A stretch of DNA of 32,000 nucleotides from Crocosphaera subtropica ATCC 51142 (lineage in GTDB: Bacteria > Cyanobacteriota > Cyanobacteriia > Cyanobacteriales > Microcystaceae). Numbering within the stretch: position 1 is the stretch's first letter; every line of letters begins with the position of its first letter. The DNA lies in contig NC_010546.1 in the NCBI RefSeq assembly GCF_000017845.1, forward strand, positions 2,190,001 through 2,222,000, in the 5' to 3' direction. Below the pieces are notes generated by a model. That model was not told where the DNA came from. It made no database searches and was given only the letters and a program-made list of their open reading frames with translations. This document shows positions 5,261 to 32,000 of this stretch, piece by piece. The position numbers and the translations under genes are program-made.

Positions 5261-6676
5261 ATGGATCAATTAACATCTTATTGGCAACTTTATCAGGTTC
5301 GATCCAATGGTACAGAATACAAGAAGAAGATAGAAGCAGCAGAAAAATGGCTGAAAGATAGTTATGATTTAACTCAGTGGACTCAAGAAAAAATACTCAA
5401 TAATTTACTTAATATTTTCAAGAATACTGCATTAGATAACTTATTAGATAACTTAATCGAAAAGGGTAAATCCGGACTTTGTTTAAGATGTTATATTTCT
5501 GAATATATTGTAACAGCTTGTAAAAAAAGAGCTAGTTTATTTAGTAGTAGTCAAGGGGTGACTTATCAAGCTTTACTACCCTTTGTATTAGATGATGATG
5601 GTAAGTCTTTAATTATTATTGATCAAGAAGATAAACAGCAACTAGAAATAACAGATAATGGAAAATTCTTACCTAAATCTAATAATTTGTTTACTGTTGA
5701 AGTGATCAATAGTTATAAAAATAGTTCTGACAATCAAACAAAACTTAGTTTAAGGAATTGGACTTATTTAAAAACAAAACAAAATAAAAAGATTGTTGAT
5801 TTTTTAGCAGAGTTTGGCTTTAGTAATGTAACAGATTGGTCTTTACTAAATCGAGTTAAAAAATATGAATTACAACAATTAACTGAACAAGAACAGTCAA
5901 TTATTAAAGTGTATGCAGAGGTGTATAAACGTGATCGCCGTCAAAATCAATACATATTACGCAGTAAATGTCAACCTCCTTCCGTTGAACAATTACAAGA
6001 AATGATCAATAAATTGAACGTTGAAAAAATCCAAAAACCTCATACTTTACTGAATGAATTAAAACGTATTGCTAAACAACTACGCCGAGTTGTAGTCTCT
6101 TTAGATAGTAGTCTAATGGATAAAGAAGGAGAGACTACAACCTTAGAAGTTCCCTATCATGATGTACCCATCGAAGAGAAAGAAAAATTAGAAATTTTCA
6201 ATCAAATTCAAGATAATTTAATGCACTGTTTTCAAACGAATATAGGCAAAGTAGTGCAAAATACGATACAAAAATTACAAAAGAGTAAGAGTTATTCTCT
6301 CTATGCTTCTCAGTATATATATGTCCTGAAAAGCTTTTATCAAGAAGGAAAAAGTATCAGTAATATTGCTAAAGAGATAGGAATTGAACAGTATAAAGCA
6401 AGTCGAATATTTAGCCCAAAAAACTTATTAAAAGAAGTTCGTAAACAAACCGTAGATGATTTAATAAACGCTATTCTAAAATTAATAAAAGAGAGAAAAC
6501 TTATCACTGAACCTTTTGATCATAATTACTTAACCCTATTAACAGAAACCGTTGAACAATATGCAGATAAAGAAATTTTCGCCGAAGCTTCAGCGCAAAT
6601 TATGACCAGTACCAACAACAATTATGAAAATTTATACACTCAAACCCTAATAGAATACTTAACCCAAAATAGCTAA
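5261..6676 (+). CDS. sigma-70-like / HTH protein of the type found next to DUF1822 genes
   Basis: 471-aa ORF. Segments LCLRCYISEYIVTACKKRASLF and NVTDWSLLNRVKK match motifs I recall from cyanobacterial 'sigma-70 family' proteins encoded upstream of DUF1822. The C-terminus has a region-4-like HTH (QEGKSISNIAKEIGIEQYKASRIF). Assignment is by memory, not by search. Confidence 0.7.
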   Translation: MDQLTSYWQLYQVRSNGTEYKKKIEAAEKWLKDSYDLTQWTQEKILNNLLNIFKNTALDNLLDNLIEKGKSGLCLRCYISEYIVTACKKRASLFSSSQGVTYQALLPFVLDDDGKSLIIIDQEDKQQLEITDNGKFLPKSNNLFTVEVINSYKNSSDNQTKLSLRNWTYLKTKQNKKIVDFLAEFGFSNVTDWSLLNRVKKYELQQLTEQEQSIIKVYAEVYKRDRRQNQYILRSKCQPPSVEQLQEMINKLNVEKIQKPHTLLNELKRIAKQLRRVVVSLDSSLMDKEGETTTLEVPYHDVPIEEKEKLEIFNQIQDNLMHCFQTNIGKVVQNTIQKLQKSKSYSLYASQYIYVLKSFYQEGKSISNIAKEIGIEQYKASRIFSPKNLLKEVRKQTVDDLINAILKLIKERKLITEPFDHNYLTLLTETVEQYADKEIFAEASAQIMTSTNNNYENLYTQTLIEYLTQNS

Positions 6677-6707
6677 TATAATTAACTTAATTTAGTGGAG
6701 AAATATC

Positions 6708-7733
6708 ATGACAAATAGACTTATGGAAACCAGTGACTTTCGTTTATTAATACCCGAAGAAATTTGGCTAGAACAAGAAGATTATGATCTTGCCAAACAA
6801 TTAAGTGAAATTGAAGGAACGGAAGACAAAAAATGGCAAGCGTATATCAATTTATTAGGGATGTTTGCTTTAGAAAAATGGCTAAAAGAAAATATTTATA
6901 CTCAAGACATACAGCGCATAATTGATAGGATTGATACTTACGGATATCTACAACGAAAAGGGTTTAAATTTTGTCTTATAACTCAAGAAGATTTTTTACA
7001 AGAAGGAATGATTGTTCCTAGAGAATTAATTTATAACTCTGATCATACTGCTCATTTTTATGTGGCAATGGAGGTGTTAGAAGAGGAAGAAATAGCGATT
7101 ATTAGGGGATTTATTTCTTATGATAAACTATCTCAATTATCATTACCAACGATTGAAGATAATAATTATTGGTTATTTTTGGATTATTTAGATCCCGAAC
7201 CTAATCATCTCTTAATGACGTACAAATATCTTGAACCCAGTACCATTATCTTACCTCAAAATATAGTTAATCAAGTGCAAGAAAATGTACAAGAAGCAAT
7301 TATAAATTTAAGTAATTGGTTAGAGGGTATGTTAGAGGAAAGTTGGCAAAATTTAGAACAATTAATAAATACGGATGCAGGTTTAAATTTTGCTACTCGT
7401 AGTCTATCAGAAGAAAAGAAAGTCGGTAAATTTATCCGATTACAAATGGAATTCGACGAACAAATTTTTGTTTTATTATTAACCATTTCTCCCACAGCAG
7501 AAGATAAACTAAGAATTCAAGTTCAATTGTATCCAACCAATAACCAAACCTATTTATCTTCTGAAATTAAGTTAAGAATGTACTCAAAATCAGGAAAATT
7601 AGTTAAAGAAGTCATAGCGGGAAAACAGGATAATTATATTCAGTTACCTCCTTTTTCTGCATCCAAAGATAGACAATTTAAAATTGAAGTTAATCTCAAC
7701 AATGCTTCTATTACTGAGACATTTCGAGTGTAA
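6708..7733 (+). CDS. DUF1822 family protein
   Basis: 341-aa ORF. The N-terminus has WQAYINLLGMFALEKWLKE. The C-terminal ~100 aa end in QDNYIQLPPFSASKDRQFKIEVNLNNASITETFRV, matching my recollection of DUF1822. A GGAG SD lies at 6697-6700, 7 nt before the ATG, and the gap to the upstream gene is 31 nt. Confidence 0.78.
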   Translation: MTNRLMETSDFRLLIPEEIWLEQEDYDLAKQLSEIEGTEDKKWQAYINLLGMFALEKWLKENIYTQDIQRIIDRIDTYGYLQRKGFKFCLITQEDFLQEGMIVPRELIYNSDHTAHFYVAMEVLEEEEIAIIRGFISYDKLSQLSLPTIEDNNYWLFLDYLDPEPNHLLMTYKYLEPSTIILPQNIVNQVQENVQEAIINLSNWLEGMLEESWQNLEQLINTDAGLNFATRSLSEEKKVGKFIRLQMEFDEQIFVLLLTISPTAEDKLRIQVQLYPTNNQTYLSSEIKLRMYSKSGKLVKEVIAGKQDNYIQLPPFSASKDRQFKIEVNLNNASITETFRV

Positions 7734-7737
7734 AAAG

Positions 7738-10700
7738 ATGATTTTAATAATTAATTTTGGAAAAGGAAATTTAGAAGAAGGATTTTCTTATATTACCCTT
7801 CAATTATGGTCAGATTATAGCCCTTTTCCCCAACAGTTTACCAGTTGTTTACCTGCTAACCTAGAATTAAAAAATAGTTGTAATCAATGGCGACTACAAT
7901 ATGATCAATATCATCAAAGAAATAGTTTTGATTCTAGAAACAATCTAGATGACAATGAGGATGAATTTGATTTTGAGGACAGTGTTACTAATTTTTCAGA
8001 AGTTGATTTTATCTCTTTTTCTAATAACTTACTTGAAACATTTAATCAGTGGCTAAATAGTGATAATTTTTCTAATATTCTGGAAAAAATAGCAGCAAAA
8101 TTGAATCCTAATGAAGCAATTAGATTGATTTTAAATACGGATAATGATACCTTAAAACGACTTCCTTGGAGTGATTGGGAATTTTTGAATGCTTATCCTA
8201 AATCAGAAATTTCCCTGAGTCGTTCCCATTATATTCGTGAAGAAATTAATATCAAACTTCGCAATAAAGTGAGAATTTTGGCTATTATTGGTAACACACA
8301 AGGAATTAATGTGAACCAAGAAAAACAATGGTTAAATCAATTACCAGATGCAGAAGTTTATTTTTTAGAAAAACCGTGTAAAGATGATATTAAAACCATT
8401 TTGTCTGATACTAAAGGATGGGATATTTTATTTTTTGCTGGTCATAGTAATACAAAAGAAAATACAGGAATATTATCAATAAATGATAGTAATGAAAGAG
8501 ATGTCACCATTAATGAATTAAGATGTCATTTAAAAGAAGCAATCAAAAATGGGTTACAAGTTGCTATTTTTAATTCCTGTGACGGTTTAGGTATTGGTGA
8601 CGGGTTAGCTAGTTTGTATATTCCCATTACAATTATTATGCGAGAACCCGTTCCTAATAAAGTAGCACAAGTTTTTTTTCATCAATTTTTAGAGAGTTAT
8701 GCTAACCAAAAATTATCTCTTTATATAGCAGTAAAAAATGCTAGAAAAAAGTTAGAAACCCTGGACAATGATTATCTTACTGCTTCTTGGTTGCCGATGA
8801 TATTTCAAAACCCTTCATTTTCTCCTCCTAGTTGGGTAGAGTTGGGTGGGTTTTCTCCTTGTCCCTATTTAGGATTAAATGCTTTTCAAGAAAGCAATGC
8901 TGATCTATTTTTTGGACGAGAAACGTTAATAAATGAGTTAGAAGATTTAGTTAAGCAAAATTATTTTATTCCTTTAGTTGGTGCATCAGGAAGCGGTAAA
9001 TCTTCCCTTATTTTTGCAGGTTTAATTCCTAAATTACGTCAAGATATTAATCAAAATTGGCGAATTAGTTGGTTTCGTCCGAATAATAATCCTTTTGAGG
9101 GATTCGTTAAAGCTATTTCTCAATTTACTAATAATTCTTATGATCGTTTTCAAGAATTACAATTAGAACTTGATTTAGAAAATGATAGGACTGCTATTAG
9201 TAATTGTTTTAACCAAATTATTCAAAACTTCAACTATTCTAGTAACTTATTATTAATAATTGATCAGTTTGAAGAACTGTTTACTTTATGCAATAAGTCT
9301 CAGCGTGAAGCATTTTTAAAAAGTGTACTAACTGCTATTAATACTGTTTATAAACTTACAGTTATTATTACCTTACGGGCTGATTTTTTAAGTTATTTAT
9401 TAAATTCTGTAGAATGGGGACAATTATTAAAACAATATTCTCCTCAATATATTACTTCAATGAATCGAGAAGAATTAAAATCAGCCATTGTTAAGCCGGC
9501 TGCTTTTCATGGGGTTAAATTAAAAGATAAATTAGTAGATCAATTAATTGATGATGTCTATCAAGAAGCAGGATATTTACCCTTATTACAGTTTACCTTA
9601 ACTGAACTTTGGAAACAGCAAAAAAAAGGATGGTTAACTTATCAAGATTATGAAACAATAGGAGGAGTTAGAACTGCATTAGCTAACTATGCAGAGTCAG
9701 TTTATCAAAAATTTTATCAAGAAGAACAAGAAAAAATAAAAAAAATATTTCTGCAACTGGTTACTCTGAAAGAAAATAATCAACCAACTAAAAAATTAGT
9801 GACAAAAGACAATAACTTCGTTAGAGAAAATTGGCAGTTAATCACTCGTTTAGCGTCCAGTCATCTCTTGATTACAAACTCATTAGAAAAAGAAATAACC
9901 GTTGAAATTGCTCACGAAAAATTGATTACTGCTTGGCCAAGATATTATCAATGGATACAAGAACATCAAGATTTTCTACGCTGGCGATCGCAATTATCTA
10001 ATAATATTAATCAATGGAGAAATTGTCTTCAAATAAAACAAGATCAACCGTTACAATTGAGACTATTTTTATCGAAGAAAATTGAAATTTGGAAGAATTA
10101 TCAACAACAAAAAGGTTATTTATTAAAAGATAGTCCATTAATTAATGCAAGAATTTGGTATAAGAAACGATTACATGAATTAGCAGAAGAAGAAAAAGAA
10201 TTTATTGAAAAAAGTTTAAAACTTCGTCGTAATCAAAAAATCACGATTAGTTTAATCAGCATTTCTGTCTTAGGCACTATTTCATTAGTTAGTATATTTG
10301 CTTGGGTACAATCAAAAGAAAGACAACTAGAACAATTAATTCGTTATGCTTCTTCTCAGGTAATTACTTCAGAAAATCTAAAGACCATCATCGATGTTTT
10401 ACCTAACTATTTAAACAGCGCAAATCAAAGAGAAAAAAGTAACCAAATAAAGCAAGCTATGGATGATTATCGTCAAATTTTACGAGTCGCTAATAACACT
10501 TACGAAAAAATAGAAAAAGATCCTCACATTTTCCAAAATGTATCAAATGTTCAAGATAAAATCACAAATATTTCTCAACAAGCTGAGTCCTCTTTAGCTG
10601 AAATGATTTCTAAATATAGATTACCGAAGTTAGAACAACAACTCACGAATAAACAGTTTGGCGAAAGAAAAATAAGTCAAATGATTAACCCCGATGCTGA

Positions 10701-11034
10701 TACTATAGAATATGATTATACTCAAACCATTTATACAGACGCATTAAAAACAACCCATGATATTATTATGAGTGATATAGGAGCAAAAACTGATCAAAAT
10801 AGTAATGATATAATCGATGAAGGAGAAGAAAAAATGATTCCGTGTCAAACCTTAATACAAATAGAAAAACTATGGAGAAAAGCAACTAATAATCAGTGTG
10901 GATGGTATGGAGAAGATAACGTTTGGCAATCAAACTGTCAACCATTTAAAGGAAATACCCTTACTAATATGTTGATGTATCCCAGTGATGTTCCTTTACT
11001 AGAAAATCGTTTACATCAGTGTCAAATATTGTAA
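7738..11034 (+). CDS. CHAT (caspase-fold) protease fused to STAND-type P-loop NTPase, one TM helix and a Cys-containing C-terminal domain
   Basis: I take the ATG at 7738 (MILIINFGKGN...), 4 nt after the DUF1822 stop, as the start rather than 7684, which overlaps the upstream gene. CHAT dyad: FFAGHS (His 8443-8445) and IFNSCDG (Cys 8578-8580). NTPase: PYLGLNAFQESNADLFFGRE then Walker A GASGSGKSS (8980-9006) and Walker B-like LLLIIDQFEE (Asp 9262-9264). TM helix ITISLISISVLGTISLVSIFAWV (10240-10308). Confidence 0.88.
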   Translation: MILIINFGKGNLEEGFSYITLQLWSDYSPFPQQFTSCLPANLELKNSCNQWRLQYDQYHQRNSFDSRNNLDDNEDEFDFEDSVTNFSEVDFISFSNNLLETFNQWLNSDNFSNILEKIAAKLNPNEAIRLILNTDNDTLKRLPWSDWEFLNAYPKSEISLSRSHYIREEINIKLRNKVRILAIIGNTQGINVNQEKQWLNQLPDAEVYFLEKPCKDDIKTILSDTKGWDILFFAGHSNTKENTGILSINDSNERDVTINELRCHLKEAIKNGLQVAIFNSCDGLGIGDGLASLYIPITIIMREPVPNKVAQVFFHQFLESYANQKLSLYIAVKNARKKLETLDNDYLTASWLPMIFQNPSFSPPSWVELGGFSPCPYLGLNAFQESNADLFFGRETLINELEDLVKQNYFIPLVGASGSGKSSLIFAGLIPKLRQDINQNWRISWFRPNNNPFEGFVKAISQFTNNSYDRFQELQLELDLENDRTAISNCFNQIIQNFNYSSNLLLIIDQFEELFTLCNKSQREAFLKSVLTAINTVYKLTVIITLRADFLSYLLNSVEWGQLLKQYSPQYITSMNREELKSAIVKPAAFHGVKLKDKLVDQLIDDVYQEAGYLPLLQFTLTELWKQQKKGWLTYQDYETIGGVRTALANYAESVYQKFYQEEQEKIKKIFLQLVTLKENNQPTKKLVTKDNNFVRENWQLITRLASSHLLITNSLEKEITVEIAHEKLITAWPRYYQWIQEHQDFLRWRSQLSNNINQWRNCLQIKQDQPLQLRLFLSKKIEIWKNYQQQKGYLLKDSPLINARIWYKKRLHELAEEEKEFIEKSLKLRRNQKITISLISISVLGTISLVSIFAWVQSKERQLEQLIRYASSQVITSENLKTIIDVLPNYLNSANQREKSNQIKQAMDDYRQILRVANNTYEKIEKDPHIFQNVSNVQDKITNISQQAESSLAEMISKYRLPKLEQQLTNKQFGERKISQMINPDADTIEYDYTQTIYTDALKTTHDIIMSDIGAKTDQNSNDIIDEGEEKMIPCQTLIQIEKLWRKATNNQCGWYGEDNVWQSNCQPFKGNTLTNMLMYPSDVPLLENRLHQCQIL

Positions 11035-20516: not shown

Positions 20517-21920
20517 TTAAAAGGGATTTCCCACAAGAGAAAACCCACTCCAATAATAAGGGTGAGATAAATCTAATCCTTCTACCCTCATCGCTTCTGA
20601 CGTTAAAGAAATATCTTCTCTAGGGGTTTCTAACTGTCCTTCTCGCCAACGAACATTTCCCTGAATCATCGCCATTTGCGCCCGTCTCAGAGCTTCAGCT
20701 TTCAAGGAAGTTTCCTTCAGTTGCCAGTAAAATTCGCTCATCATCCCCAATGTACCAAGATCACTCGCTCGCCACAAACTCCCTACTGCTGAATTAACCC
20801 CTGATTGAAGGGCTAAACCCACAAAACCCAATTCCGCATCAATATCTCCTAAAGCAGTATTACAAGCACTAAGCACCAATAAATCCACTGGGGGTTGACT
20901 CCAGTTAAGGTCTTCCATTTCCTTAAGATTAAGTCGAGTATCAGAAAATTGAATATAAGAATGACTAGGATTTCCAGGATTAAATTGAGCGTGGGTAGCT
21001 AGATGAATAATAGAGTAAGGATTCCTTTGTCGATGTTCTTTTAAATTCCCTAACGTAAACGCTTCATTTAACAATGTTACTCCTTCCCACAATCCGGGCG
21101 TAATGGTGGATAATTCCGCTGCTACCCCCGGTAAAGGCTGATCATTGGGAAATTCTGAGGCTCCCATAGCCAAAATTTGAGCATCCTCTAAGGTTTCGTA
21201 GTCCCAGTTAGTGAGGTTAAAGCCAGGAATTCGGGTAATGCCATAATTTTCAATTAAAAAATTTTCCCCATCGTGTAATGCAGCAAAGGGAAAAGAACGT
21301 AACATTGGACCCACACACAAAATCAGCGTATCAATATTTTGGCTGCGTAAATGATATTCTATTGGTAAAATCATCAACTTATATAAATCCTGTGCGGGTT
21401 TTAAATAAGCAGAAGACTGAGGGGACTGAAGTTGTTGGTGAAATTGTTTAATAGCGTTAAACAGTGCGTCTTGATTGCCCTCCGGAACTCTAATACCCAT
21501 CGGTTGTTTTCCGGGAGTGATAATATACAACGCCAAATAATCAGGAGTCGAAGTCATCCAGACAACCGCCGGTCTTTTCCCCGTTTGTTGACTCAACTGA
21601 GTGAGTTTGTCAGCGATTTGATCAGGGGTTAGAGATAAACTAGAAAAATTGTTATCAAAGTATTTTTCATAAAGACCTTCCCACTGCTTTTCAAGGGCAA
21701 AGACTTGCTCAGACCAATAGCCTTCGACTTCATCGGGGTTACGGGTTCCCCCTGGAATCGATTCCCCCCCAGGGGTTCCCGTATCAGGAGATTGAGGTAA
21801 GTGATCATTGTTTCGTTGTTCTCTTGGTTTTTCAGCCCATAACGCTGGAAAATAAAGAAAACTTCCCGTGGTTAAAACGATGGGAGTGACAAGAGTGATT
21901 AGCAAAATTAATTTTTTCAT
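20517..21920 (-). CDS. exported CHAT-domain (caspase-fold) protease
   Basis: I prefer the ATG at 21920 (MKKLILLITLVTPIVLTTGSFLYFPALWA|EKP, signal-like) over the TTG at 21941. CHAT dyad: IIHLATHAQF and LLVLSACNTALG. The C-terminus HPYYWSGFSLVGNPF is typical of CHAT. It starts 42 nt after the kinase stop. Confidence 0.85.
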   Translation of the reverse strand: MKKLILLITLVTPIVLTTGSFLYFPALWAEKPREQRNNDHLPQSPDTGTPGGESIPGGTRNPDEVEGYWSEQVFALEKQWEGLYEKYFDNNFSSLSLTPDQIADKLTQLSQQTGKRPAVVWMTSTPDYLALYIITPGKQPMGIRVPEGNQDALFNAIKQFHQQLQSPQSSAYLKPAQDLYKLMILPIEYHLRSQNIDTLILCVGPMLRSFPFAALHDGENFLIENYGITRIPGFNLTNWDYETLEDAQILAMGASEFPNDQPLPGVAAELSTITPGLWEGVTLLNEAFTLGNLKEHRQRNPYSIIHLATHAQFNPGNPSHSYIQFSDTRLNLKEMEDLNWSQPPVDLLVLSACNTALGDIDAELGFVGLALQSGVNSAVGSLWRASDLGTLGMMSEFYWQLKETSLKAEALRRAQMAMIQGNVRWREGQLETPREDISLTSEAMRVEGLDLSHPYYWSGFSLVGNPF

Positions 21921-21962
21921 GGTTACTAAGTACCTAGACAAAAATAAACGTTACGGTTGAAG

Positions 21963-24137
21963 CTAATTCCAAAAATCGACCTCCTGCCTCCTTTGACGGG
22001 AATGGGACTCGATCAAACCTCGCCAAATTTTAATAGTCGGCTGACGACTACTACTAATCATCTCTCCTGACGGGCCAGTTGCCACGGACAACACCCAATC
22101 TCTGTGGTCTGTTAACGTATCCAACAGCCTTTGATTTTGCCAGTCCCAGACTTGAAGCGTCTCATCAATACTACCACTGACTAACCTTTGACCATCACGG
22201 CTAAAAGTAACCGCCACAATGCGATCGCTATGTTCAGAAAAAGTAGATAGCACCTTTCCCGTGGCCATCTCCCAAACTTTGACCGTGCCATCCCAACTGC
22301 CACTAGCTAAGTAGTTTCCATCAGGGGAAAAGGCGACAGAACGAACGGCATCTTGATGATCAGATAAAGTTTGTAACATTTGACCGGTTTGAACATCCCA
22401 AAGCTTCACCGTGCCATCTTTACCACCACTGGCCAACCGTTTGCCATCAGGACTAAAGGTTGCACTAAACACCCAACCTGAATGACCCCTTAAAGTACGA
22501 ATTACCTCTGCTGTGGCCATATTCCAAAGTTTAATCGTTTCATCCGCACTAGCACTGGCTATGATTTGTTGATCAGGACTTATTTCTACTGACCACAAAG
22601 AATCCTGATGAGCGGTCAAAGTCCGAATTAATTCACCCGTTGCTGTGTTCCAGAGTTTAATCGTTTGATCCGCACTAGCACTAGCGATTACATTTCCATC
22701 GTGACTAACCGTTACTGAACGCACACCATCCCCATGACCGGAGAAAGTTTGCAAAAGGCTTCCTGTCTCTGTATTCCAAACCCTAACGGTTTTATCCTCG
22801 CCACCACTGACAGCCAGTTTCCCATTGGAACTCAGGACAACAGACCACACCCCATTGCGATGACCAGTCAGGGTTGTTGTTGGGTGAAGGGCGTTGATTT
22901 CTTCCTCTTTTTCCTCAGTGAGAGAAGGGGTGATAGGAGTACGGACAAATCTTGCCATCCCAATTCCGAGTATCAAAGTCACCAAAGTAAAGAGCAAACA
23001 TTGTCCCCATTTAATAGCAAAGCCAGAAGAACGAGTCAGATTAGATGTTTTGCGTTGAGTGGCTTGTGAGTTGTTAGCCATAGAAACCGTCTCTTGGTCT
23101 AAGGCGATAGAAGGGTTAGGGAGTGGTTTGTTATGATTGCCTTGGGGTAATTGTTTGGCGGGATCAAGAGAAATAGCCGAAGATAACGCTTCACTCAATT
23201 CCCGAACAGAACTAAACCGATCATCAGGAGACTTGTTTAGGCAGCCCATGACCACCGCTTCAAGGGTTTCGGATAAGTGGTCACAGTTAGGCTGCGATCG
23301 CAAAGGGAGAGGGGTTTTAGACGCATGAGCAAATAGCCAAGATTCTACACTAACTCGATTTTCTCGAAAGTTAAAGCCAAAGGGATCAACCCCTGTCAAC
23401 ATCTCATACAACATTAACCCTAAACTATAAATATCTGCCCGTGCATCTAAGTTTTGTGATCCTTCTAATTGTTCAGGGGCTGCATAATGACAAGTTCCTA
23501 AAAACATATTCGTCAGACTGGTATGTTCTGCTTGAAGGTTGCGAATTTTAGCAATACCAAAGTCAATAACTTTTACTAAGTCTCCTAATGCAGTGGGAAC
23601 CAGAAAGATGTTTTGCGGTTTCAAGTCTCGATGAACCACTTTAATAGTTTGGGTTTCTCCTGTTGCCTCATCCACTAACGTAACACCGTCATGGGCTAAT
23701 TCTAATCCTGCACAAACTTGAGAGATAATTAAACAAGTTTCTTCAGGAGACAAACGAGGGGTATATTTTAAGCGTTGAGCTAGGGTTTCGCCTTCTAGAT
23801 ATTCCATTATATAGAAAGGATAACCCCCCTCAGTAATTCCATAATCACTGACTTGGACAATATGTTCACTTTTAAGAGAAGCACAAATCTTTAATTCCCA
23901 ATCAAACCGAATTCGCATCGAGCGATCATCAGCTAAAGATTCTCTGAGTAGTTTAAAAGCGACAGGTTTATTGAGACGTTTATCTGTCGCTAAGAAAACA
24001 TGACCCATTCCTCCTTCTCCTAGTTGTTGTTCTAAGCGATAACGGTTTTCTTCTCCAATGCACAAAGAACCGCTAGGGGAAGATTGAGCAGAAGGAATAC
24101 TATGGAAATTGTAGGGAGAAGATTTGATAGGAAACAT
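21963..24137 (-). CDS. Ser/Thr protein kinase - TM helix - 7-bladed WD40 propeller
   Basis: Hanks kinase motifs: GEGGMGHVFLA, VAFKLL, HRDLKPQNIFL, DFGIAK, APEQ. One TM helix (CLLFTLVTLILGIGMARFV). Seven WD40 repeats lie at about 21995-22880, with a 126-nt period. Blades at 22522 and 22648 are about 35/40 identical at the DNA level. Confidence 0.92.
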   Translation of the reverse strand: MFPIKSSPYNFHSIPSAQSSPSGSLCIGEENRYRLEQQLGEGGMGHVFLATDKRLNKPVAFKLLRESLADDRSMRIRFDWELKICASLKSEHIVQVSDYGITEGGYPFYIMEYLEGETLAQRLKYTPRLSPEETCLIISQVCAGLELAHDGVTLVDEATGETQTIKVVHRDLKPQNIFLVPTALGDLVKVIDFGIAKIRNLQAEHTSLTNMFLGTCHYAAPEQLEGSQNLDARADIYSLGLMLYEMLTGVDPFGFNFRENRVSVESWLFAHASKTPLPLRSQPNCDHLSETLEAVVMGCLNKSPDDRFSSVRELSEALSSAISLDPAKQLPQGNHNKPLPNPSIALDQETVSMANNSQATQRKTSNLTRSSGFAIKWGQCLLFTLVTLILGIGMARFVRTPITPSLTEEKEEEINALHPTTTLTGHRNGVWSVVLSSNGKLAVSGGEDKTVRVWNTETGSLLQTFSGHGDGVRSVTVSHDGNVIASASADQTIKLWNTATGELIRTLTAHQDSLWSVEISPDQQIIASASADETIKLWNMATAEVIRTLRGHSGWVFSATFSPDGKRLASGGKDGTVKLWDVQTGQMLQTLSDHQDAVRSVAFSPDGNYLASGSWDGTVKVWEMATGKVLSTFSEHSDRIVAVTFSRDGQRLVSGSIDETLQVWDWQNQRLLDTLTDHRDWVLSVATGPSGEMISSSRQPTIKIWRGLIESHSRQRRQEVDFWN

Positions 24138-24154
24138 GATAAGTTCCTCGTTTT

Positions 24155-24189
24155 GAAGTCAGAAGTCAGAAGTCAGAAGTTAGAAGTTA
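24155..24189. repeat. heptanucleotide tandem repeat, 5 copies
   Basis: GAAGTCA x3 then GAAGTTA x2 (24155-24189). It starts 18 nt upstream of the kinase start codon (24137, minus strand) and directly abuts its GAGGA SD. Confidence 0.9.
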
Positions 24190-24191
24190 GT

Positions 24192-24240
24192 GAAACCCAA
24201 CAAAAGGTTATGGGTGTTGGGTTTCGTTCCTCAACCCAAC
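24192..24240. repeat. AACCCAAC palindromic element with two mutually exclusive hairpins
   Basis: GAAACCCAACA (24192-24202) pairs perfectly with TGTTGGGTTTC (24215-24225): an 11-bp stem with a 12-nt loop. The same right arm (GTTGGGT, 24216-24222) can instead pair with ACCCAAC (24234-24240). No U-tract on either strand, so not a canonical terminator. Confidence 0.7.
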
Positions 24241-24288
24241 CTACTTTAAACTGAAATTTTGATACACTCAATTGAAAACTGCTATTAT

Positions 24289-25764
24289 CTACGCCTCAAT
24301 TTCGATTTCATCCACAGCATAGGCAATACAAGGTAAAATAAACCCTTCTTCTTGTTCCTGTTGATCCAGTCCATCGGGTTCCCCTTCATAGCGAATGTTT
24401 CCCTTGCGTTTACGCTTCTTACACGCACCACAAACCCCTTGCATACAACCACTACGAATATTAATTCCTTCTTGTTGAGCCACTTCTAGAATAGACTCTT
24501 GACCGTCACAAGTAACAGTTTTACCTGACTCAATAAATGCGATCGCTGGTTTGGAAGAAGGTTTTTCAATTTTCTCCCCCTCTCCCTGCTCACCACTCCC
24601 TTGCAGTTTTACAGGAGATGTCACTTTAGCCTGTTTTTTCCCCACACCAAAACTCTCTTCATGATAGTTTTCTGGAGGAAGTCCCATGTTTCCTAACAGG
24701 GTTTTGACTCCTTTCATAAACCCATCGGGGCCACAAACATAAACAGACCGTTCTCTAAAATCAGATACCATCGTCGATAACATTTGTTCGCTAAGTCTTC
24801 CCCGATATCCCAGCCAAGGTTGTCCAGGGTCTGGTTGTGTTAGGGAAATAGCGAGATGAAAATGAGGGTTTCTCGCTGCCATTAATTGCAATTCTTGCGC
24901 CATAATAATGTCACTGCAACGACGACCACAGTAAACAAAGACCACATCTTGTTTTCCTGCGGTATCATAAAGCCAACGAGCCATAGAAATCATCGGGGTT
25001 ACACCACTTCCAGCAGAAATTAATAATAGTTTTGGGTTAGAATCCTTTGCACAGGTAAATTTTCCCATTGGCCCCCCTGATAACTGGATCTGATCTCCGA
25101 CTTTTAGGCGATCGTGCAGCCAGTTAGACACTAAACCAGGGGGAACATGAGGGGCATTAGGGGGTGACGGAACCCGTTTAACGGTAATCTCTAGAAGATG
25201 GGGACGGGTCGGGGTTGAAGAAATAGAATAAGCCCGTTTAACTGGTTTACCGTCGATGTTGAGGTTTAAGGTAACAAACTGACCGGGTTGATACGCAAAG
25301 GAAATAGCCGGTTCCGCTACAAAAGAAAAGGTTTTCACATCTTCGGTTTCTTCAATAATACGAATACATTTAACCGTTAAGTCTTCTTGTGTCCAACTTG
25401 CGACATTGGTTTCTAGAATTTTATGGTTAGAGATGGTGGTTTCAAGGTTCTTTTCCATCCCTTGAACCGCTAAAACAAAGTCACCAATGCGGATAATATC
25501 ATCGGGTTTCAGTGCATACCTTTGGTTAACCATTGCTGTTTCATGATTAACACGGGAACCATCGGTACTCCCTAAGTCACTGAAATAATATTGTCCTTGA
25601 TCGTAGCCAATTCTACCGTGAACTCGACTGACTTCTGGTGTTGCCAAGACAAGATCGCAAGTTGTGGCGCGTCCAATGATCCATTCTCGTTTAATTTGAT
25701 CGGGGGTTAAGGTTTTGTCTTGGAATTCACCAATTGTATAGTTGAACACCTTTAAATTCAGCAT
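24289..25764 (-). CDS. FHA domain - ferredoxin-reductase-type FAD/NAD(P) oxidoreductase - 2Fe-2S ferredoxin fusion
   Basis: 491-aa ORF. N-terminal FHA (GRATTCDLVLATPEVSRVHGRI ... GSTDGSRVNHE). FAD-binding RAYSISS, NAD-binding LLLISAGSGVTPMISM, then plant-type 2Fe-2S cysteines (SGCMQGVCGACKK ... ILPCIAY). Confidence 0.9.
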   Translation of the reverse strand: MLNLKVFNYTIGEFQDKTLTPDQIKREWIIGRATTCDLVLATPEVSRVHGRIGYDQGQYYFSDLGSTDGSRVNHETAMVNQRYALKPDDIIRIGDFVLAVQGMEKNLETTISNHKILETNVASWTQEDLTVKCIRIIEETEDVKTFSFVAEPAISFAYQPGQFVTLNLNIDGKPVKRAYSISSTPTRPHLLEITVKRVPSPPNAPHVPPGLVSNWLHDRLKVGDQIQLSGGPMGKFTCAKDSNPKLLLISAGSGVTPMISMARWLYDTAGKQDVVFVYCGRRCSDIIMAQELQLMAARNPHFHLAISLTQPDPGQPWLGYRGRLSEQMLSTMVSDFRERSVYVCGPDGFMKGVKTLLGNMGLPPENYHEESFGVGKKQAKVTSPVKLQGSGEQGEGEKIEKPSSKPAIAFIESGKTVTCDGQESILEVAQQEGINIRSGCMQGVCGACKKRKRKGNIRYEGEPDGLDQQEQEEGFILPCIAYAVDEIEIEA

Positions 25765-26867: not shown

Positions 26868-27080
26868 TTACCGAAGTTGATTAAATTCTTCTTCTGTAAT
26901 TCCCATTTGCTTGAGTATTTCCTGAAATAACCAGCTACCAATTTCTGCTTGACCATGAATGGGAATAGTAGTCGCTCTCCCGTCAGGATGCTTCCAGCGT
27001 GCATGAGAGCCTTTTTGTCTAGCTTTTTTAAATCCAAGTTTTTTTGCTACTTTTTCTAGTTCCTTTGCTTTAGCTGGCAT
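26868..27080 (-). CDS. hicA: type II toxin HicA
   Basis: ELEKVAKKLGFKKARQKGSHARWKHPDGRATTIPIHG is the HicA dsRBD-like signature. I prefer the ATG at 27080 over the TTG at 27089. It overlaps the hicB stop (27070-27072). Confidence 0.9.
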   Translation of the reverse strand: MPAKAKELEKVAKKLGFKKARQKGSHARWKHPDGRATTIPIHGQAEIGSWLFQEILKQMGITEEEFNQLR

Positions 27081-27291
27081 TGGCAACAAGTAATTCTACA
27101 TCTTGAGGAAAAGAACGGTTCATTTCTTGATATTCTTCTAATATCATGGCAAAAACATTATCTAATTCTGCTCTTGCTGCTTCTGAAGTTTCACCCCAAG
27201 CATGACAGCCTTCAATAGCAGGAACATAAGCAACATAAGTATTATTGTCATCGGGACGAATAACAATTGTGTAATCTTTCAGGGACTTCAT
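27070..27291 (-). CDS. hicB: type II antitoxin HicB (short, no DNA-binding extension)
   Basis: YTIVIRPDDNNTYVAYVPAIEGCHAWGETSEAARAELDNVFAMILEEY is the HicB N-terminal RNase-H-like fold signature. It overlaps hicA. Confidence 0.88.
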   Translation of the reverse strand: MKSLKDYTIVIRPDDNNTYVAYVPAIEGCHAWGETSEAARAELDNVFAMILEEYQEMNRSFPQDVELLVANAS

Positions 27292-28079: not shown

Positions 28080-29846
28080 TTATTGTTTCTTTGAAAACGG
28101 CCTTTGAATCGTTTTTGCTTCATCTCTTGAACCTTTGGGCAACTGTTTTCTATTCCCTTTGCCTAAAAGAGATAAACTTTGACTATTTTTAGCATCTAAA
28201 GGCCGTTGCATGGTTAACTCAGGATTAGAAAACGTCTCTTTAATAGGACGACGAATGGTTAATTCAGCATCAGAAATTTGACCTAAATGGGGAACAAATA
28301 ATTCAGGATAATCTTGACACAGTTGGTCTAAACTTTTCCAATGTTCGTCTTCATTAATTCCTAATTCTTGGCGTAAAGTTTGGAATACTTTGAGGCTACC
28401 GTTAGGACTAATACGACGTTGGGCGATCGCTTCTTTGAGGGTTCCTGTATACACTTGTAAACGAGATTGATGGGTGAAACCAGGCAACACTTTAGCTAAA
28501 GCATACAATTCATCGGCGTTTAAATCATCTAAACTTCGACCTTCAAGAAACGCTGAACAATCTATAGACATTTTCGCCAGTTGACGACGCAATAAATGAC
28601 TATCCCGTTCTTTTATATATTGTTCATAGCGACGTTGCCACGCTTTAACTAACCATAACCCACTCATTAAAATAGCAGCCCAAGTGATTACATTCTGTCC
28701 ATTGAACGGTATCCATCCTAACGTGGGACGTACCCCTAAGAAGAATAAACAATTAAAGGAAACAAAGGTAAACAGGGTAAATAAACGATGATGAACTTGT
28801 TCTAAAGATAACGGTCTTTTAAAACGCTTATTGTAACGTTTATAAGCTTTTTCTAACCGCATTCCTATAACATAAGTTGCTCCTGAAAAGAACAGTAACG
28901 TTAAAGGAACTGCTACAATTTTAGGAATAGGAATAGCATAACCTGAAATATAAAAACCTGGAGAAAATAGAGTGGCTAATTGATTCGTTTCGTTCCAAAC
29001 CCCTCCAGACAGAAACTGCCAGTTACCCGAATATAGACCAAAATAAACATAAAACCCAACAGCTAAACCCAGATAACCGTAATAGAGTAATTTGCGATCG
29101 CTTTGATTAATTTTACTCCAATAGGCATTTTCGGCATCAATATCCATACAAGGAGACTGACAAGCGACACAAGCACTTTTTTCTTGTCCCTGACTATCCA
29201 CTTTACGACACATGGACTGGGTAATGGACATGGGGGGTGCGGTATGCGCTTCGGAGGTTAGAAGTCCACTGGGTTCACTATAAATCATTTGGACTGGGGC
29301 CATGGGACAAAAATAATGACACCAACTTTTTCCCCCGTACAAAAAGCCAACGGTGACGGCGGATAAGATGGTAACTGTAAGGAAAATTCCCAATAATAGG
29401 CGATCGGAATTCACCAACAGTAAACGCAGATTTAACCCTACAAATAACAAACCCCATTGCAAGTATAGATGATTGCGAGATAACCAAGAATTCTCCTTGA
29501 CCAACTTTTTACGCTGCCATCCCAAGGCACGGGGAATTTGAGAAAAGAACGATAAAGGGCAGATACGTCGCCATGCTTCATGTCCGAACAAAACTAAAAT
29601 AATAATGGCCGCAGGAACCACCATCCCCCAAAATATTCTAGGCCCCAAGGGATAGGGAGTTAAAGGCAGACATTGCCCTTGAAACTTATAACAACTATTT
29701 GCAGTTTTCGGTCCCAAAAATTGATAGGGTTCGGTTAAAAAGGCGGAAACGGGGTCATAAAACAGAGACAAAATGAGCATTAACCAACCAATGGCTAACC
29801 CCCAACGTATCCAGTGCATTTTTGTTTCAGGAATTTTGGCAAACAT
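28080..29846 (-). CDS. polytopic membrane 4Fe-4S-binding protein (NapH/MauN-like) with a soluble C-terminal extension
   Basis: 588-aa ORF with multiple TM helices and Cys motifs: RRICPLSFF, SWCHYFCPMAP, ACVACQSPCMDID. The last ~190 aa are hydrophilic and helical (LDDLNADELYALAKVL...). Confidence 0.8.
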   Translation of the reverse strand: MFAKIPETKMHWIRWGLAIGWLMLILSLFYDPVSAFLTEPYQFLGPKTANSCYKFQGQCLPLTPYPLGPRIFWGMVVPAAIIILVLFGHEAWRRICPLSFFSQIPRALGWQRKKLVKENSWLSRNHLYLQWGLLFVGLNLRLLLVNSDRLLLGIFLTVTILSAVTVGFLYGGKSWCHYFCPMAPVQMIYSEPSGLLTSEAHTAPPMSITQSMCRKVDSQGQEKSACVACQSPCMDIDAENAYWSKINQSDRKLLYYGYLGLAVGFYVYFGLYSGNWQFLSGGVWNETNQLATLFSPGFYISGYAIPIPKIVAVPLTLLFFSGATYVIGMRLEKAYKRYNKRFKRPLSLEQVHHRLFTLFTFVSFNCLFFLGVRPTLGWIPFNGQNVITWAAILMSGLWLVKAWQRRYEQYIKERDSHLLRRQLAKMSIDCSAFLEGRSLDDLNADELYALAKVLPGFTHQSRLQVYTGTLKEAIAQRRISPNGSLKVFQTLRQELGINEDEHWKSLDQLCQDYPELFVPHLGQISDAELTIRRPIKETFSNPELTMQRPLDAKNSQSLSLLGKGNRKQLPKGSRDEAKTIQRPFSKKQ

Positions 29847-30057: not shown

Positions 30058-30975
30058 TTAAGCAACGATTTCAAACTGACCATAGAAGATATGCCAGTTA
30101 TTTTTACCGTTTAACTGTTTCCATATTTCTTCTAAATGCTTTGCTTTCCATTGTAGAGCTAGTTCATCTGGTTTAGCATTCAGTCGGGACAACTCTAAGG
30201 GACTATCGGTAACAATTCCGATATATTCTTCTTTCCCTTCTGCATCAAATTGAATATCCCCACAAACAGCATTTGGCTGAGGGATTAAGACACTTTTTTC
30301 AATTAGTTGATAATTGGGAGCAAAAGCTTGAGACGGCGTAATTAAATTTTGGGTAATATTTCCTTGTTTATCTTTCCCACGATTGAATAATATTAGATAA
30401 TTTCCTGAACAATTTAACTCAATCTTTAAACATAAAGGAGTCAAAATAGAAAGTTTTTTGGTAGGTTCACCCTTTGGAATTTTCATTCCTTTTGCTCCGA
30501 TTTCTTGAAATTGCATCCAATTTGTGTTGGATTGTGCTTCTTGTTTCCAAGTTTCCCAAATATAATCTTGTACCCAGTCAAAGTAGGGTCCATTCCATAA
30601 CCAGTCATAAATAATTTGCCAAGGACTAGATTCAGATGCTTTTTTTCGTCCTGGTTTTCCTTTTTTATCTCCTAAACCAAGCTGAGTTTCAGTAATACCA
30701 TCAGCCATTAGTTGTTCTCGAAAAACACTATTTATTTTTTTGATAATTTCTTTAATATTTTGTTGTAATCCATTTTCATATTTGCCAGGTTCATTTTCCC
30801 TTTGAGACAATATCCTAGCAATTTCCGTATGACTCAGTGGATAATTATTAGGAGTGAAGCAATTATTAGGAGTGAAGCGTTCTATAAATAGGTGATACTG
30901 AATTTCAGAACGAGTGTTGCCAGGAAAAATTTTTTTAGCAACGTATTCTAAGAATTGTTTGTCTAGATAAACCAT
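30058..30975 (-). CDS. HTH (LuxR/sigma-region-4-like) protein with C-terminal DUF4384-like beta domain
   Basis: 305-aa ORF. N-terminal PLSHTEIARILSQ...GLQQNIKEIIKKI resembles a region-4/LuxR HTH. C-terminal CSGNYLILFNRGKDKQGNITQNLITPSQAFAP matches my recollection of DUF4384, a caspase-associated domain. Assignments are from memory. Confidence 0.65.
   Translation of the reverse strand: MVYLDKQFLEYVAKKIFPGNTRSEIQYHLFIERFTPNNCFTPNNYPLSHTEIARILSQRENEPGKYENGLQQNIKEIIKKINSVFREQLMADGITETQLGLGDKKGKPGRKKASESSPWQIIYDWLWNGPYFDWVQDYIWETWKQEAQSNTNWMQFQEIGAKGMKIPKGEPTKKLSILTPLCLKIELNCSGNYLILFNRGKDKQGNITQNLITPSQAFAPNYQLIEKSVLIPQPNAVCGDIQFDAEGKEEYIGIVTDSPLELSRLNAKPDELALQWKAKHLEEIWKQLNGKNNWHIFYGQFEIVA
30843..30878 (-). 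repeat. perfect 18-nt tandem duplication inside the CDS
   Basis: AATTATTAGGAGTGAAGC occurs at 30843-30860 and again at 30861-30878. It is in frame and encodes FTPNNCFTPNNY on the minus strand. Confidence 0.95.
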
Positions 30976-31212
30976 CTTGAGTTATTTTGAAGTAGTTTGA
31001 TCATTTTCAACCATAGCAAAAGTTTACTTAAAAAGAAAGAGCTTTTTATTTTAATTGATCTTTCTTTATTTTATTTAAAAATTTCTTCTGGACATTGATT
31101 ATCGTTGATTTCAATTTATTTTTGAATTAGGTATCGTAAACAAAGAAGCTTTTATGGCATTGACTTAAACAAGCAGTCTACTCACTTAATTTATAATTCA
31201 GGCAACGTTATC

Positions 31213-31530
31213 ATGTTATCAGTTTTACCATTGCGTCAGTTAGAAATTGTTGGACAAGAATATCTACTAAGTATTATTCCTCAAGCAAATATTGCACCCA
31301 ATACTTGGCAGTTTGAATTACGCAATAAGAGAAAATCAGGATTGATTCCTGGTGGATTTAAGTTAAGGTTACTCACAGAAGCAGGGGAGTCGTTTCCTAA
31401 TAATGAAGCTATCGCTACTGAAGCAGTGGAGAGTCTTTATCTAACTTTGAGCATCAAACCTAAAACCATTTTAATGTTAGAAATAGAACCAATCCCTGAA
31501 AATTATCATCGAGAAATATTAATTTTTTAG
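31213..31530 (+). CDS. small protein resembling the C-terminal module of DUF1822
   Basis: The 105-aa ORF aligns by eye, block for block, with the last ~100 aa of the DUF1822 protein at 6708..7733. YLLSIIPQ matches VLLLTISP, and FKLRLLTEAGESF matches IKLRMYSKSGKLV. LYLTLSIKPKTILMLEIEP matches YIQLPPFSASKDRQFKIEVNL, and the C-terminal REILIF matches TETFRV. Confidence 0.55.
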   Translation: MLSVLPLRQLEIVGQEYLLSIIPQANIAPNTWQFELRNKRKSGLIPGGFKLRLLTEAGESFPNNEAIATEAVESLYLTLSIKPKTILMLEIEPIPENYHREILIF

Positions 31531-31594
31531 ACATTAATTTGCTTCTTAGTTTCTTTTCTGGTAAATAGTTTATTTAAGGATTAGAGAATTGAAA

Positions 31595-32000
31595 ATGTCA
31601 GCGATCGCAACAACAGCACAAAGATTAGAAATCGGTACAGCTAAACTCTGGATAGTTTTAGTGGGAGTGAATCAGTATGAGGATCGAAATCTTCGTAATC
31701 TGAAATATTGTGCTAATGACTGTCAAGAGTTAGCTGAAGTATTAGAGATCGCTACTCGACAATTTCAAGAGACAGAAATAATTGCCCTTTATGATGGAGG
31801 AGAGAAAATCCCTAATTTATCAGAAATTCATACCAGTATTGAGGCGTTTCAGTCAGCAAAACCAGAAGATACAGTATTATTTTATTTTTCAGGACATGGT
31901 TATTTAGATACGAATAATCAACCTATTTTATGTGTAGCAGATACCCAATTAGAAGATTTAGCAGGGACAGGATTAAAGTTAGATAGGTTGTTAAATCTAT
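31595..32000 (+). CDS. caspase-family (peptidase C14, orthocaspase-like) protein, 3'-truncated by window edge
   Basis: Not in the ORF track because it has no stop. From the ATG at 31595 it encodes MSAIATTAQRLEIGTAKLWIVLVGVNQYEDRNLRNLKYCANDCQELAEVL ... PEDTVLFYFSGHGY, the p20 region with the catalytic His in SGHG. It is open to nt 32000 and lies 64 nt downstream of the 105-aa gene. Confidence 0.85.
   Translation, partial: MSAIATTAQRLEIGTAKLWIVLVGVNQYEDRNLRNLKYCANDCQELAEVLEIATRQFQETEIIALYDGGEKIPNLSEIHTSIEAFQSAKPEDTVLFYFSGHGYLDTNNQPILCVADTQLEDLAGTGLKLDRLLNL

Follow-up and report, generated by a model that had tools for sequence, protein, structure and literature searches.

The 32,000-nt stretch of Crocosphaera subtropica ATCC 51142 analysed here (NC_010546.1, positions 2,190,001-2,222,000; hereafter the window) carries a module of three genes at its right edge. 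The first encodes a protein of 305 amino acids (aa), which we term p305. Facing away from it, across a divergent spacer, are an open reading frame (ORF) whose product corresponds to one end of the DUF1822 family (mini-DUF1822) and the 5' end of a caspase gene, the ATG of which follows 64 nt after the mini-DUF1822 gene. This arrangement had been described in an earlier note on the same DNA, and the coordinates, ORF sizes, FYFSGHG motif, 64-nt gap and 237-nt divergent spacer given there are all present in the sequence. The features discussed, including a first cassette of related composition elsewhere in the window, are collected in Table 1.

Table 1. Positions of the module, its parts and other features discussed. 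Numbers refer to the window unless a locus or contig (L-number) is named.
Feature	Position	Strand	Description
p305 gene	30058-30975	minus	ORF, 305 aa
Divergent spacer	30976-31212		237 nt, between the p305 and mini-DUF1822/caspase genes
Conserved 17-nt element TTGATTTCAATTTATTT	31105-31121	plus	found by cross-locus alignment
Mini-DUF1822 gene	31213-31530	plus	ORF, 105 aa, Pfam PF08852 match
Caspase gene, 5' end (135 codons)	31595-32000	plus	ATG at 31595, Peptidase_C14, runs off the window end
Middle region of the caspase protein	L001 7536-8324		residues ~260-523
First cassette	5261-11034		471-aa protein, full-length DUF1822 (E=4.8e-51) and CHAT+nSTAND1 protein, in that order
471-aa protein gene	5261-6676		no Pfam match
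Mini-DUF1822 fragment, Scytonema sp. PCC 10023	L010 7665-7784	minus	40 aa
Extra small ORFs	L047 9127-10888; L052 6013-7907; L056 6628-6954; L051/L054 ~7473-7734
Triad of Cyanobacteria bacterium J06643_13	L049 2859-8076
Multi-pass membrane protein gene	28080-29846	minus	588 aa, directly downstream of p305
HicA/HicB toxin-antitoxin pair	~26868-27291	minus	L001 2029-2452; gene calls on the identical contig
Third caspase-fold locus	20517-25764	minus	includes a stand-alone CHAT protein
HEPN gene and 143-aa ORF	70-1234	plus	left edge of the window

The portion of the caspase ORF that lies within the window matches Peptidase_C14 (PF00656, E=2e-10) and contains FYFSGHG. The gene was extended past nt 32000 using public contig L001, the longest of three contigs encoding the 105-aa protein and identical over the shared genes. 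On this contig the gene comprises at least 1471 codons. Its product possesses a Peptidase_C14 domain at residues 20-236 (E=3.7e-18) with an intact catalytic dyad, His101 residing in FYFSGHG and Cys151 in IDACQ, in agreement with the caspase call of the earlier note. Further domains are encoded beyond the window itself, namely an nSTAND1 NTPase at residues 524-954 (E=5e-103) followed by WD40 repeats (E=2e-66). In several orthologues phmmer produced cross-hits between the caspase domain and the middle region, which separates the caspase and NTPase domains. On inspection by eye, the caspase-like strands are kept and the catalytic His and Cys are replaced (LLLYLTGT and VIADLFD). The region is probably a degenerate second caspase-like domain; if so, the protein would contain an intramolecular pair of caspase and pseudo-caspase. 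From the succession of C14, pseudo-caspase, nSTAND1 and WD40 domains we therefore class the protein as a caspase-STAND-WD40 of the nucleotide-binding leucine-rich repeat (NLR)-like type. A second, paralogous caspase-nSTAND1-WD40 copy follows the first in L047, L049 and L054. The locus ends within the second copy in L013 and L014, where the caspase part alone is visible.

The 105-aa protein scores 57.6 bits against the Pfam DUF1822 profile PF08852 (gathering cut-off 25; E=1.5e-15), and the match spans profile positions 275-370 of 370 only, i.e. the C-terminal quarter. Its earlier description as the C-terminal module of DUF1822 is thus correct. The remainder of the full-length architecture (~370 positions, with an N-terminal, TPR-like part) is absent from the ORF and there is no in-frame start upstream. 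The 237-nt spacer is too short to hold the missing part, and a full-length DUF1822 is thereby excluded at this locus. Homologues of the short protein number 31, most of them 82-149 aa in length and all carrying a precomputed PF08852 match. Their alignment contains 25 invariant columns and ends in a fixed C-terminus, ...EILIF. Pairwise ratios of non-synonymous to synonymous substitution rates (dN/dS) range from 0.14 to 0.30, including unsaturated pairs at dS 0.38 and 0.53. Mini-DUF1822 is therefore under purifying selection and is not a decaying remnant. Its sequence pattern suggests an all-beta protein.

In one locus (L050) the supposed mini-DUF1822 match is the C-terminal piece of a split full-length DUF1822 gene, and such split genes show how the mini form originated. 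Compared pairwise, mini-DUF1822 and the full-length DUF1822 of the first cassette are not similar (BLASTP E=0.54; hhalign E=0.067, with the alignment in the right region), and the two are linked through the Pfam family profile only. A relationship of mini-DUF1822 to the C-terminal domain of p305 was also considered and rejected (hhalign probability 0.1%).

The p305 family consists of 44 full-length homologues of ~300 aa, all cyanobacterial. Precomputed Pfam domains are lacking in this set, save for PF13478 on one short match of 215 aa. An AlphaFold2 (AF2) model of full-length p305, with a predicted local distance difference test score (pLDDT) of 71, comprises a helical N-half, a low-confidence basic loop and a beta-rich C-half. 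p305 itself has no Pfam match, DUF4384 (PF14326) not being reached at E<=1, and direct PF14326 matches occur in only two of 26 family members (E=0.065). An exhaustive profile search with the p305 family alignment (A1) retrieved 205 relatives, many of which match the C-terminal module only (profile positions ~128-300) and bear it fused to other domains. Among the distant relatives, 34 of 48 match PF14326, with a best E=2.9e-17. One of them, P0208, passes the PF14326 gathering score (29.9 vs 27) and aligns with p305 residues 133-305 at an hhalign probability of 97.3% (E=1.9e-11). By transitive homology only, p305 residues ~133-305 are assigned as a DUF4384-like beta-sandwich module; the DUF4384-like C-terminus proposed earlier survives in this transitive sense and lacks a direct Pfam match. 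When the full-length model was compared with the PDB by Foldseek, weak matches to immunoglobulin (Ig)-like and FetP-like beta-sandwiches were returned (best E=0.03), without functional assignment.

The fusion partners of the p305 C-domain include CHAT (P0108, P0184), trypsin together with VMAP-M7 (P0168), STAND (P0166), TPR (P0131, P0138) and an XRE-type helix-turn-helix (HTH; P0208). The C-domain is thus joined to proteases in Rosetta-stone fashion. Additionally, one group of the C-terminal domains of Csx30, a protease substrate in type III-E CRISPR systems, is DUF4384 (Kato et al. 2022). The statement in the earlier note that DUF4384 occurs fused or adjacent to caspases is borne out on both counts for caspase-fold proteases.

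The N-half of p305 was predicted by AF2 to form six helices (residues 1-147), and residues 1-150 modelled separately (pLDDT 83) gave a Trp-rich helical domain. Foldseek comparison of this model with the PDB yielded nothing (best E=1.8), including no sigma-4, LuxR or winged-helix match. None of the 26 family members matched an HTH or sigma Pfam family at E<=10, and a PDB sequence-profile search with the family was likewise empty. The region-4/LuxR-like HTH attributed to p305 in the earlier note is consequently unsupported by Pfam, PDB profiles or Foldseek, and both the HTH/sigma-4 and the Csx30 N-terminal domain identities were dropped for the N-domain. Between the fourth and fifth helices lies a basic linker of low pLDDT, GLGDKKGKPGRKKASESS, at residues ~98-117, in which G109 is invariant. 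Its stretch GLGDKKGKPGRKK is basic, conserved and of low pLDDT.

The spacer between the divergent genes is A+T-rich by eye and presumably carries both promoters. Scans of the spacer for consensus promoters and terminators gave nothing above background, and no strong inverted repeat was found in it. A conserved element was revealed by cross-locus alignment only. This 17-nt sequence, TTGATTTCAATTTATTT, includes TTGA-N2-TCAA and is located 91 nt upstream of the ATG of mini-DUF1822. L013, L049 and L051 have TTGATTTYAATTTATTT as an exact match in their corresponding spacers, which with the window makes four related loci, and the 17-nt motif occurs once in the window where 0.01 occurrences are expected. 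TTGATTTCAATTTATTT is a candidate -35 region/promoter or operator.

In a rival explanation p305 would be a transcription factor, its N-domain binding the spacer and controlling the mini-DUF1822/caspase operon, with the DUF4384-like domain acting as a sensor or in oligomerisation. The divergent arrangement and the partly palindromic nature of the conserved element would suit such a role. In P0208, moreover, the same C-terminal module is fused to a true XRE-type HTH, and residues 17-90 of p305 loosely recall, by eye, a sigma region-4 pattern (FPGN..R...Q..F..RF......TEIA..L). We nonetheless regard a transcription factor as quite unlikely. The empty profile and fold searches of the N-domain speak against it, and the supposed helices of the HTH are separated by a loop of ~10 residues. 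The 471-aa protein of the first cassette, which is weakly sigma-4-like, was tried as a relative of p305 and rejected (hhalign probability 0.5%). Finally, distant homologues of p305 are encoded co-directionally and directly upstream of TPR-CHAT genes, a position that befits an operon partner and not a divergent regulator.

The surroundings of p305 were assessed in a locus scan restricted to one genome per species. A p305 relative is encoded in 43 loci, all of them cyanobacterial where the record names a taxon. Close homologues (>= 44% identity) adjoin a gene of the caspase/middle-region/nSTAND1 type in 13/13 loci; the two genes are divergent in 11 of these and on the same strand in 2. Distant homologues (23-34% identity) are followed directly, on the same strand, by a giant gene, and all ten giant downstream genes scanned encode TPR arrays ending in a CHAT protease domain. 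A p305 relative therefore adjoins a caspase-fold protease in 23/23 loci examined, across two protease architectures. On an annotated Calothrix plasmid, a distant homologue is flanked by two giant proteins, one of the WD40 and the other of the TPR type.

Mini-DUF1822 has a narrower distribution, being confined to a sub-lineage comprising Pleurocapsa, Stanieria and related metagenome bins. In all eight independent contexts of the mini gene the full triad is kept, and in all eight the order is the same: p305 (minus), spacer, 0-2 small ORFs, mini-DUF1822, 0-1 small ORF and caspase-nSTAND1-WD40. Because this gene order recurs in 8/8 independent contexts, the module is not a chance adjacency, and the modular system postulated in the earlier note has its three genes syntenic elsewhere. 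The contrary explanation, whereby the 105-aa ORF would be a decaying, truncated DUF1822 and p305 an unrelated neighbour, could appeal to mini-protein matches that are pieces of split full-length genes, such as L050, and to a relic of the mini gene in Scytonema (see below). It is refuted by the synteny and selection data, namely the conserved triad, the invariable pairing of p305 with a caspase-fold protease, the low dN/dS and the invariant columns with their fixed C-terminus, and we give it almost no credence.

Versions of the locus in Nostocales and Oscillatoriales are without mini-DUF1822. In Scytonema sp. PCC 10023 a 40-aa fragment resembling the C-terminal third of mini-DUF1822 (E=1.3e-6) sits between the caspase and p305 genes and is a relic of the loss of the mini gene in Nostocales. 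Since the mini gene is missing from these two orders, it is dispensable for the core pairing of p305 with the caspase.

Extra small ORFs are inserted among p305, mini-DUF1822 and caspase genes in Stanieria-type and other versions of the locus and are absent from the window. Stanieria-type operons possess additional conserved small ORFs with signal-peptide-like N-termini (105-111, 152-153 and 136-162 aa), and another subgroup encodes an 84-aa protein with hydrophobic stretches resembling transmembrane segments. The small ORFs upstream of the Stanieria mini gene were considered as fragments of a broken DUF1822; this was rejected, the ORFs encoding unrelated proteins with the signal-peptide-like N-termini just mentioned.

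Several of the loci lie in mobile or defence settings: a Stanieria plasmid, Tn7-like genes, ParAB, Abi_2/PIN/integrase genes and, on the window's contig, HicAB. Surroundings of this kind characterise mobile or defence DNA. In Cyanobacteria bacterium J06643_13 the triad adjoins Tn7-like genes (TnsA-like, rve/Mu transposase, TniB and TniQ), an integrase and a RES toxin, and may be transposon cargo.

We assign a probability of roughly 0.55 to the reading that the module is a conserved conflict switch, for defence or programmed death, of baeocystous/unicellular-type cyanobacteria, in which an NLR-like caspase would cut p305 as its dedicated, Csx30-like partner. STAND NTPases oligomerise upon ligand binding by their repeat sensor, whereupon the fused effectors are activated by proximity. 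Here, the WD40 propeller would sense the trigger, and the STAND NTPase would oligomerise and draw the caspase domains together, rendering the protease active. Signalling would then pass to p305, the protease cutting it most likely in the basic disordered linker at ~98-117, our candidate cleavage site. The cut would part the Trp-rich helical N-domain, as output, from the DUF4384-like C-domain, which would serve in protease docking or be autoinhibitory. The logic would be the same as that of Csx30 and the TPR-CHAT protease Csx29 in type III-E CRISPR. We rate p305 as the putative dedicated substrate or latch because its layout is Csx30-like and because a caspase-fold protease accompanies it in each of the 23 loci examined. 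Mini-DUF1822 would be an accessory beta-domain protein, likely an adaptor, a regulator or a second substrate, that took the place of the full-length DUF1822 accompanying the CHAT-nSTAND1 gene in the first cassette.

A wider proposal may be put forward tentatively, and we hold it to be possible though doubtful. The p305 family might represent a CRISPR-independent class of Csx30-like, protease-gated proteins serving NLR-like caspase-STAND-WD40 and TPR-CHAT proteases interchangeably throughout the cyanobacteria. Its N-domain would then be a new effector or signalling domain freed at the basic linker, and DUF4384 a general docking or latch domain.

Several observations weigh against cleavage of a Csx30-like partner in a conflict switch. 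Neither in sequence nor in fold could a similarity of p305 to solved Csx30 structures, or to anything else in the PDB, be detected, and its N-domain has no recognisable effector or DNA-binding fold. Scans of p305 and mini-DUF1822 against NCBIfam and PADLOC returned no match. The divergent orientation in this lineage would equally suit a regulator, and the Nostocales and Oscillatoriales versions do without mini-DUF1822. Furthermore, TPR-CHAT and C14 proteases probably differ in specificity, so that one linker motif may not suit both.

Alternatively, p305, mini-DUF1822 or both could be cofactors that are not cleaved, their beta-sandwich modules binding an invader ligand or clamping the protease in the manner of an inhibitor or an immunity protein; their role would be that of adaptors, comparable to co-sensors, rather than substrates. 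The strict pairing is as compatible with this as is the fusion of the p305 C-domain to sensors (TPR, STAND) and to proteases alike, and beta-sandwich-like folds, suggested for p305 by the weak Foldseek matches and for mini-DUF1822 by a reading of its sequence, are typical of binding modules. Kaur et al. (PMC8195603) likewise place the DUF1822 protein in a sensory or regulatory layer. However, the conserved basic, disordered linker of p305 and the Csx30 precedent favour cleavage, and the fact that many lineages have lost the mini gene runs contrary to an essential sensor role for mini-DUF1822. We consider non-cleaved cofactors unlikely and retain the substrate reading of p305.

The earlier note also held that the module mirrors the cassette at 5.3-11.0 kb. 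Two of the three parts correspond, a DUF1822 module and a caspase-fold/nSTAND1 protein. The third, an HTH or sigma-like part, does not, p305 being unrelated to the 471-aa protein. The latter belongs to a cyanobacterial family that is nearly all annotated as hypothetical and has several invariant Cys. A faint resemblance to a sigma-70 region-4/DeoR-type HTH is seen near residues 351-396, and the label of extracytoplasmic function (ECF) sigma factor for this protein rests on weak similarity.

Other genes in the window were noted. The 588-aa multi-pass membrane protein encoded next to p305 has a weak 4Fe-4S (Fer4_5) signature. It is seen only on contigs of the same genome and lies outside the conserved module. 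Past it, ~2.8 kb downstream of the p305 gene, is the HicA/HicB pair. At the third caspase-fold locus, the stand-alone CHAT protein (E=1.6e-59) has 474 aa, and its gene lies directly downstream of two others, which encode a 724-aa Ser/Thr-kinase-WD40 protein and a 491-aa FHA-ferredoxin-reductase-like protein. At the left edge, a 249-aa HEPN protein of the RiboL-PSP type is encoded in overlap with the end of the 143-aa ORF, and the two may form a small toxin or defence pair.

Multicellular and other complex bacteria are rich in caspase/CHAT-STAND systems, which are regarded as precursors of apoptosis in eukaryotes and of NLR immunity. To our knowledge, almost no such system has a known substrate. 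p305 is a concrete, cloneable candidate that co-occurs with two caspase-fold protease architectures in every case examined, and it makes the substrates of bacterial caspases and the functions of DUF4384 and DUF1822 directly accessible to experiment.

Among known systems, cyanobacterial orthocaspases resemble the module's protease in their C14 p20 domain with a His-Cys dyad. They cut after basic residues (PMC6426788), and WD40, AAA/NACHT and DUF4384 are recurrent among their accessory domains (reviews PMC7475262, PMC8283722, PMC6426788). In contrast, the DUF4384-like module is located here on a separate, conserved partner protein, and a second, degenerate caspase-like region follows the caspase domain.

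Evans et al. 2025 (PMC12642450) present effectors gated by proteolysis as a dominant defence logic. The modules treated there and the NLR-like Avs/bNACHT systems share with ours the combination of STAND NTPase, repeat sensor and protease, and they also share the logic proposed here, in which proteolysis at a specific site sets a latent partner free. The modules named in its abstract and in one section of that paper are MBL (metallo-beta-lactamase), alpha/beta-hydrolase, Pepco, EACC1, PCaspase and Csx30; p305/DUF4384 is not among them.

In the type III-E CRISPR system known as Craspase, Csx30, a protein of two domains, is cut in a flexible linker by Csx29, a TPR-CHAT protease (Kato et al. 2022). 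p305 resembles Csx30 in being a small two-domain protein with a flexible inter-domain linker, encoded beside a caspase-fold protease, and its distant homologues lie directly upstream of TPR-CHAT genes. Csx30 as the substrate of Csx29 in Craspase has reportedly also been described by Strecker et al. and by Hu et al., both in 2022. Homology of p305 to Csx30 was not detected: no Csx30 chain occurs among PDB sequence-profile matches at E<=10, and Csx30 is absent both from the 33 Foldseek matches of the N-domain model and from the 50 listed for the full-length model. Moreover, no CRISPR genes, RpoE or Csx31 were found here, a STAND-WD40 (or TPR) protein takes the place of Cas7-11 as sensor, and cleavage is in our case a prediction.

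The closest description is that of Kaur, Iyer, Burroughs and Aravind (eLife 2021; PMC8195603), who reported caspases with variable C-termini, including STAND NTPases, beside genes for a sigma factor of the ECF type and for a DUF1822 protein, and who proposed auto-activation of the caspase with the sigma and DUF1822 partners. The first cassette of the window fits that description. The module at the right edge shares with it a cyanobacterial caspase-fold protease, a C-terminal STAND NTPase and a neighbouring DUF1822 gene, together with a proposed logic that leads from sensing through caspase activation to action on partner proteins. It departs from it in three respects. The caspase domain here starts at ~residue 17-20, leaving no room for the constant EACC2 alpha+beta domain that is N-terminal to the caspase in their system; DUF1822 is cut down to its last ~100 residues; and p305, DUF4384-like and without sigma/HTH signal, stands in place of the sigma-like gene. 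In the literature searched we found no description of the p305 family or of mini-DUF1822. Thus, the type of system is already known computationally (Kaur et al. 2021), while the p305 partner and mini-DUF1822 are its new features.

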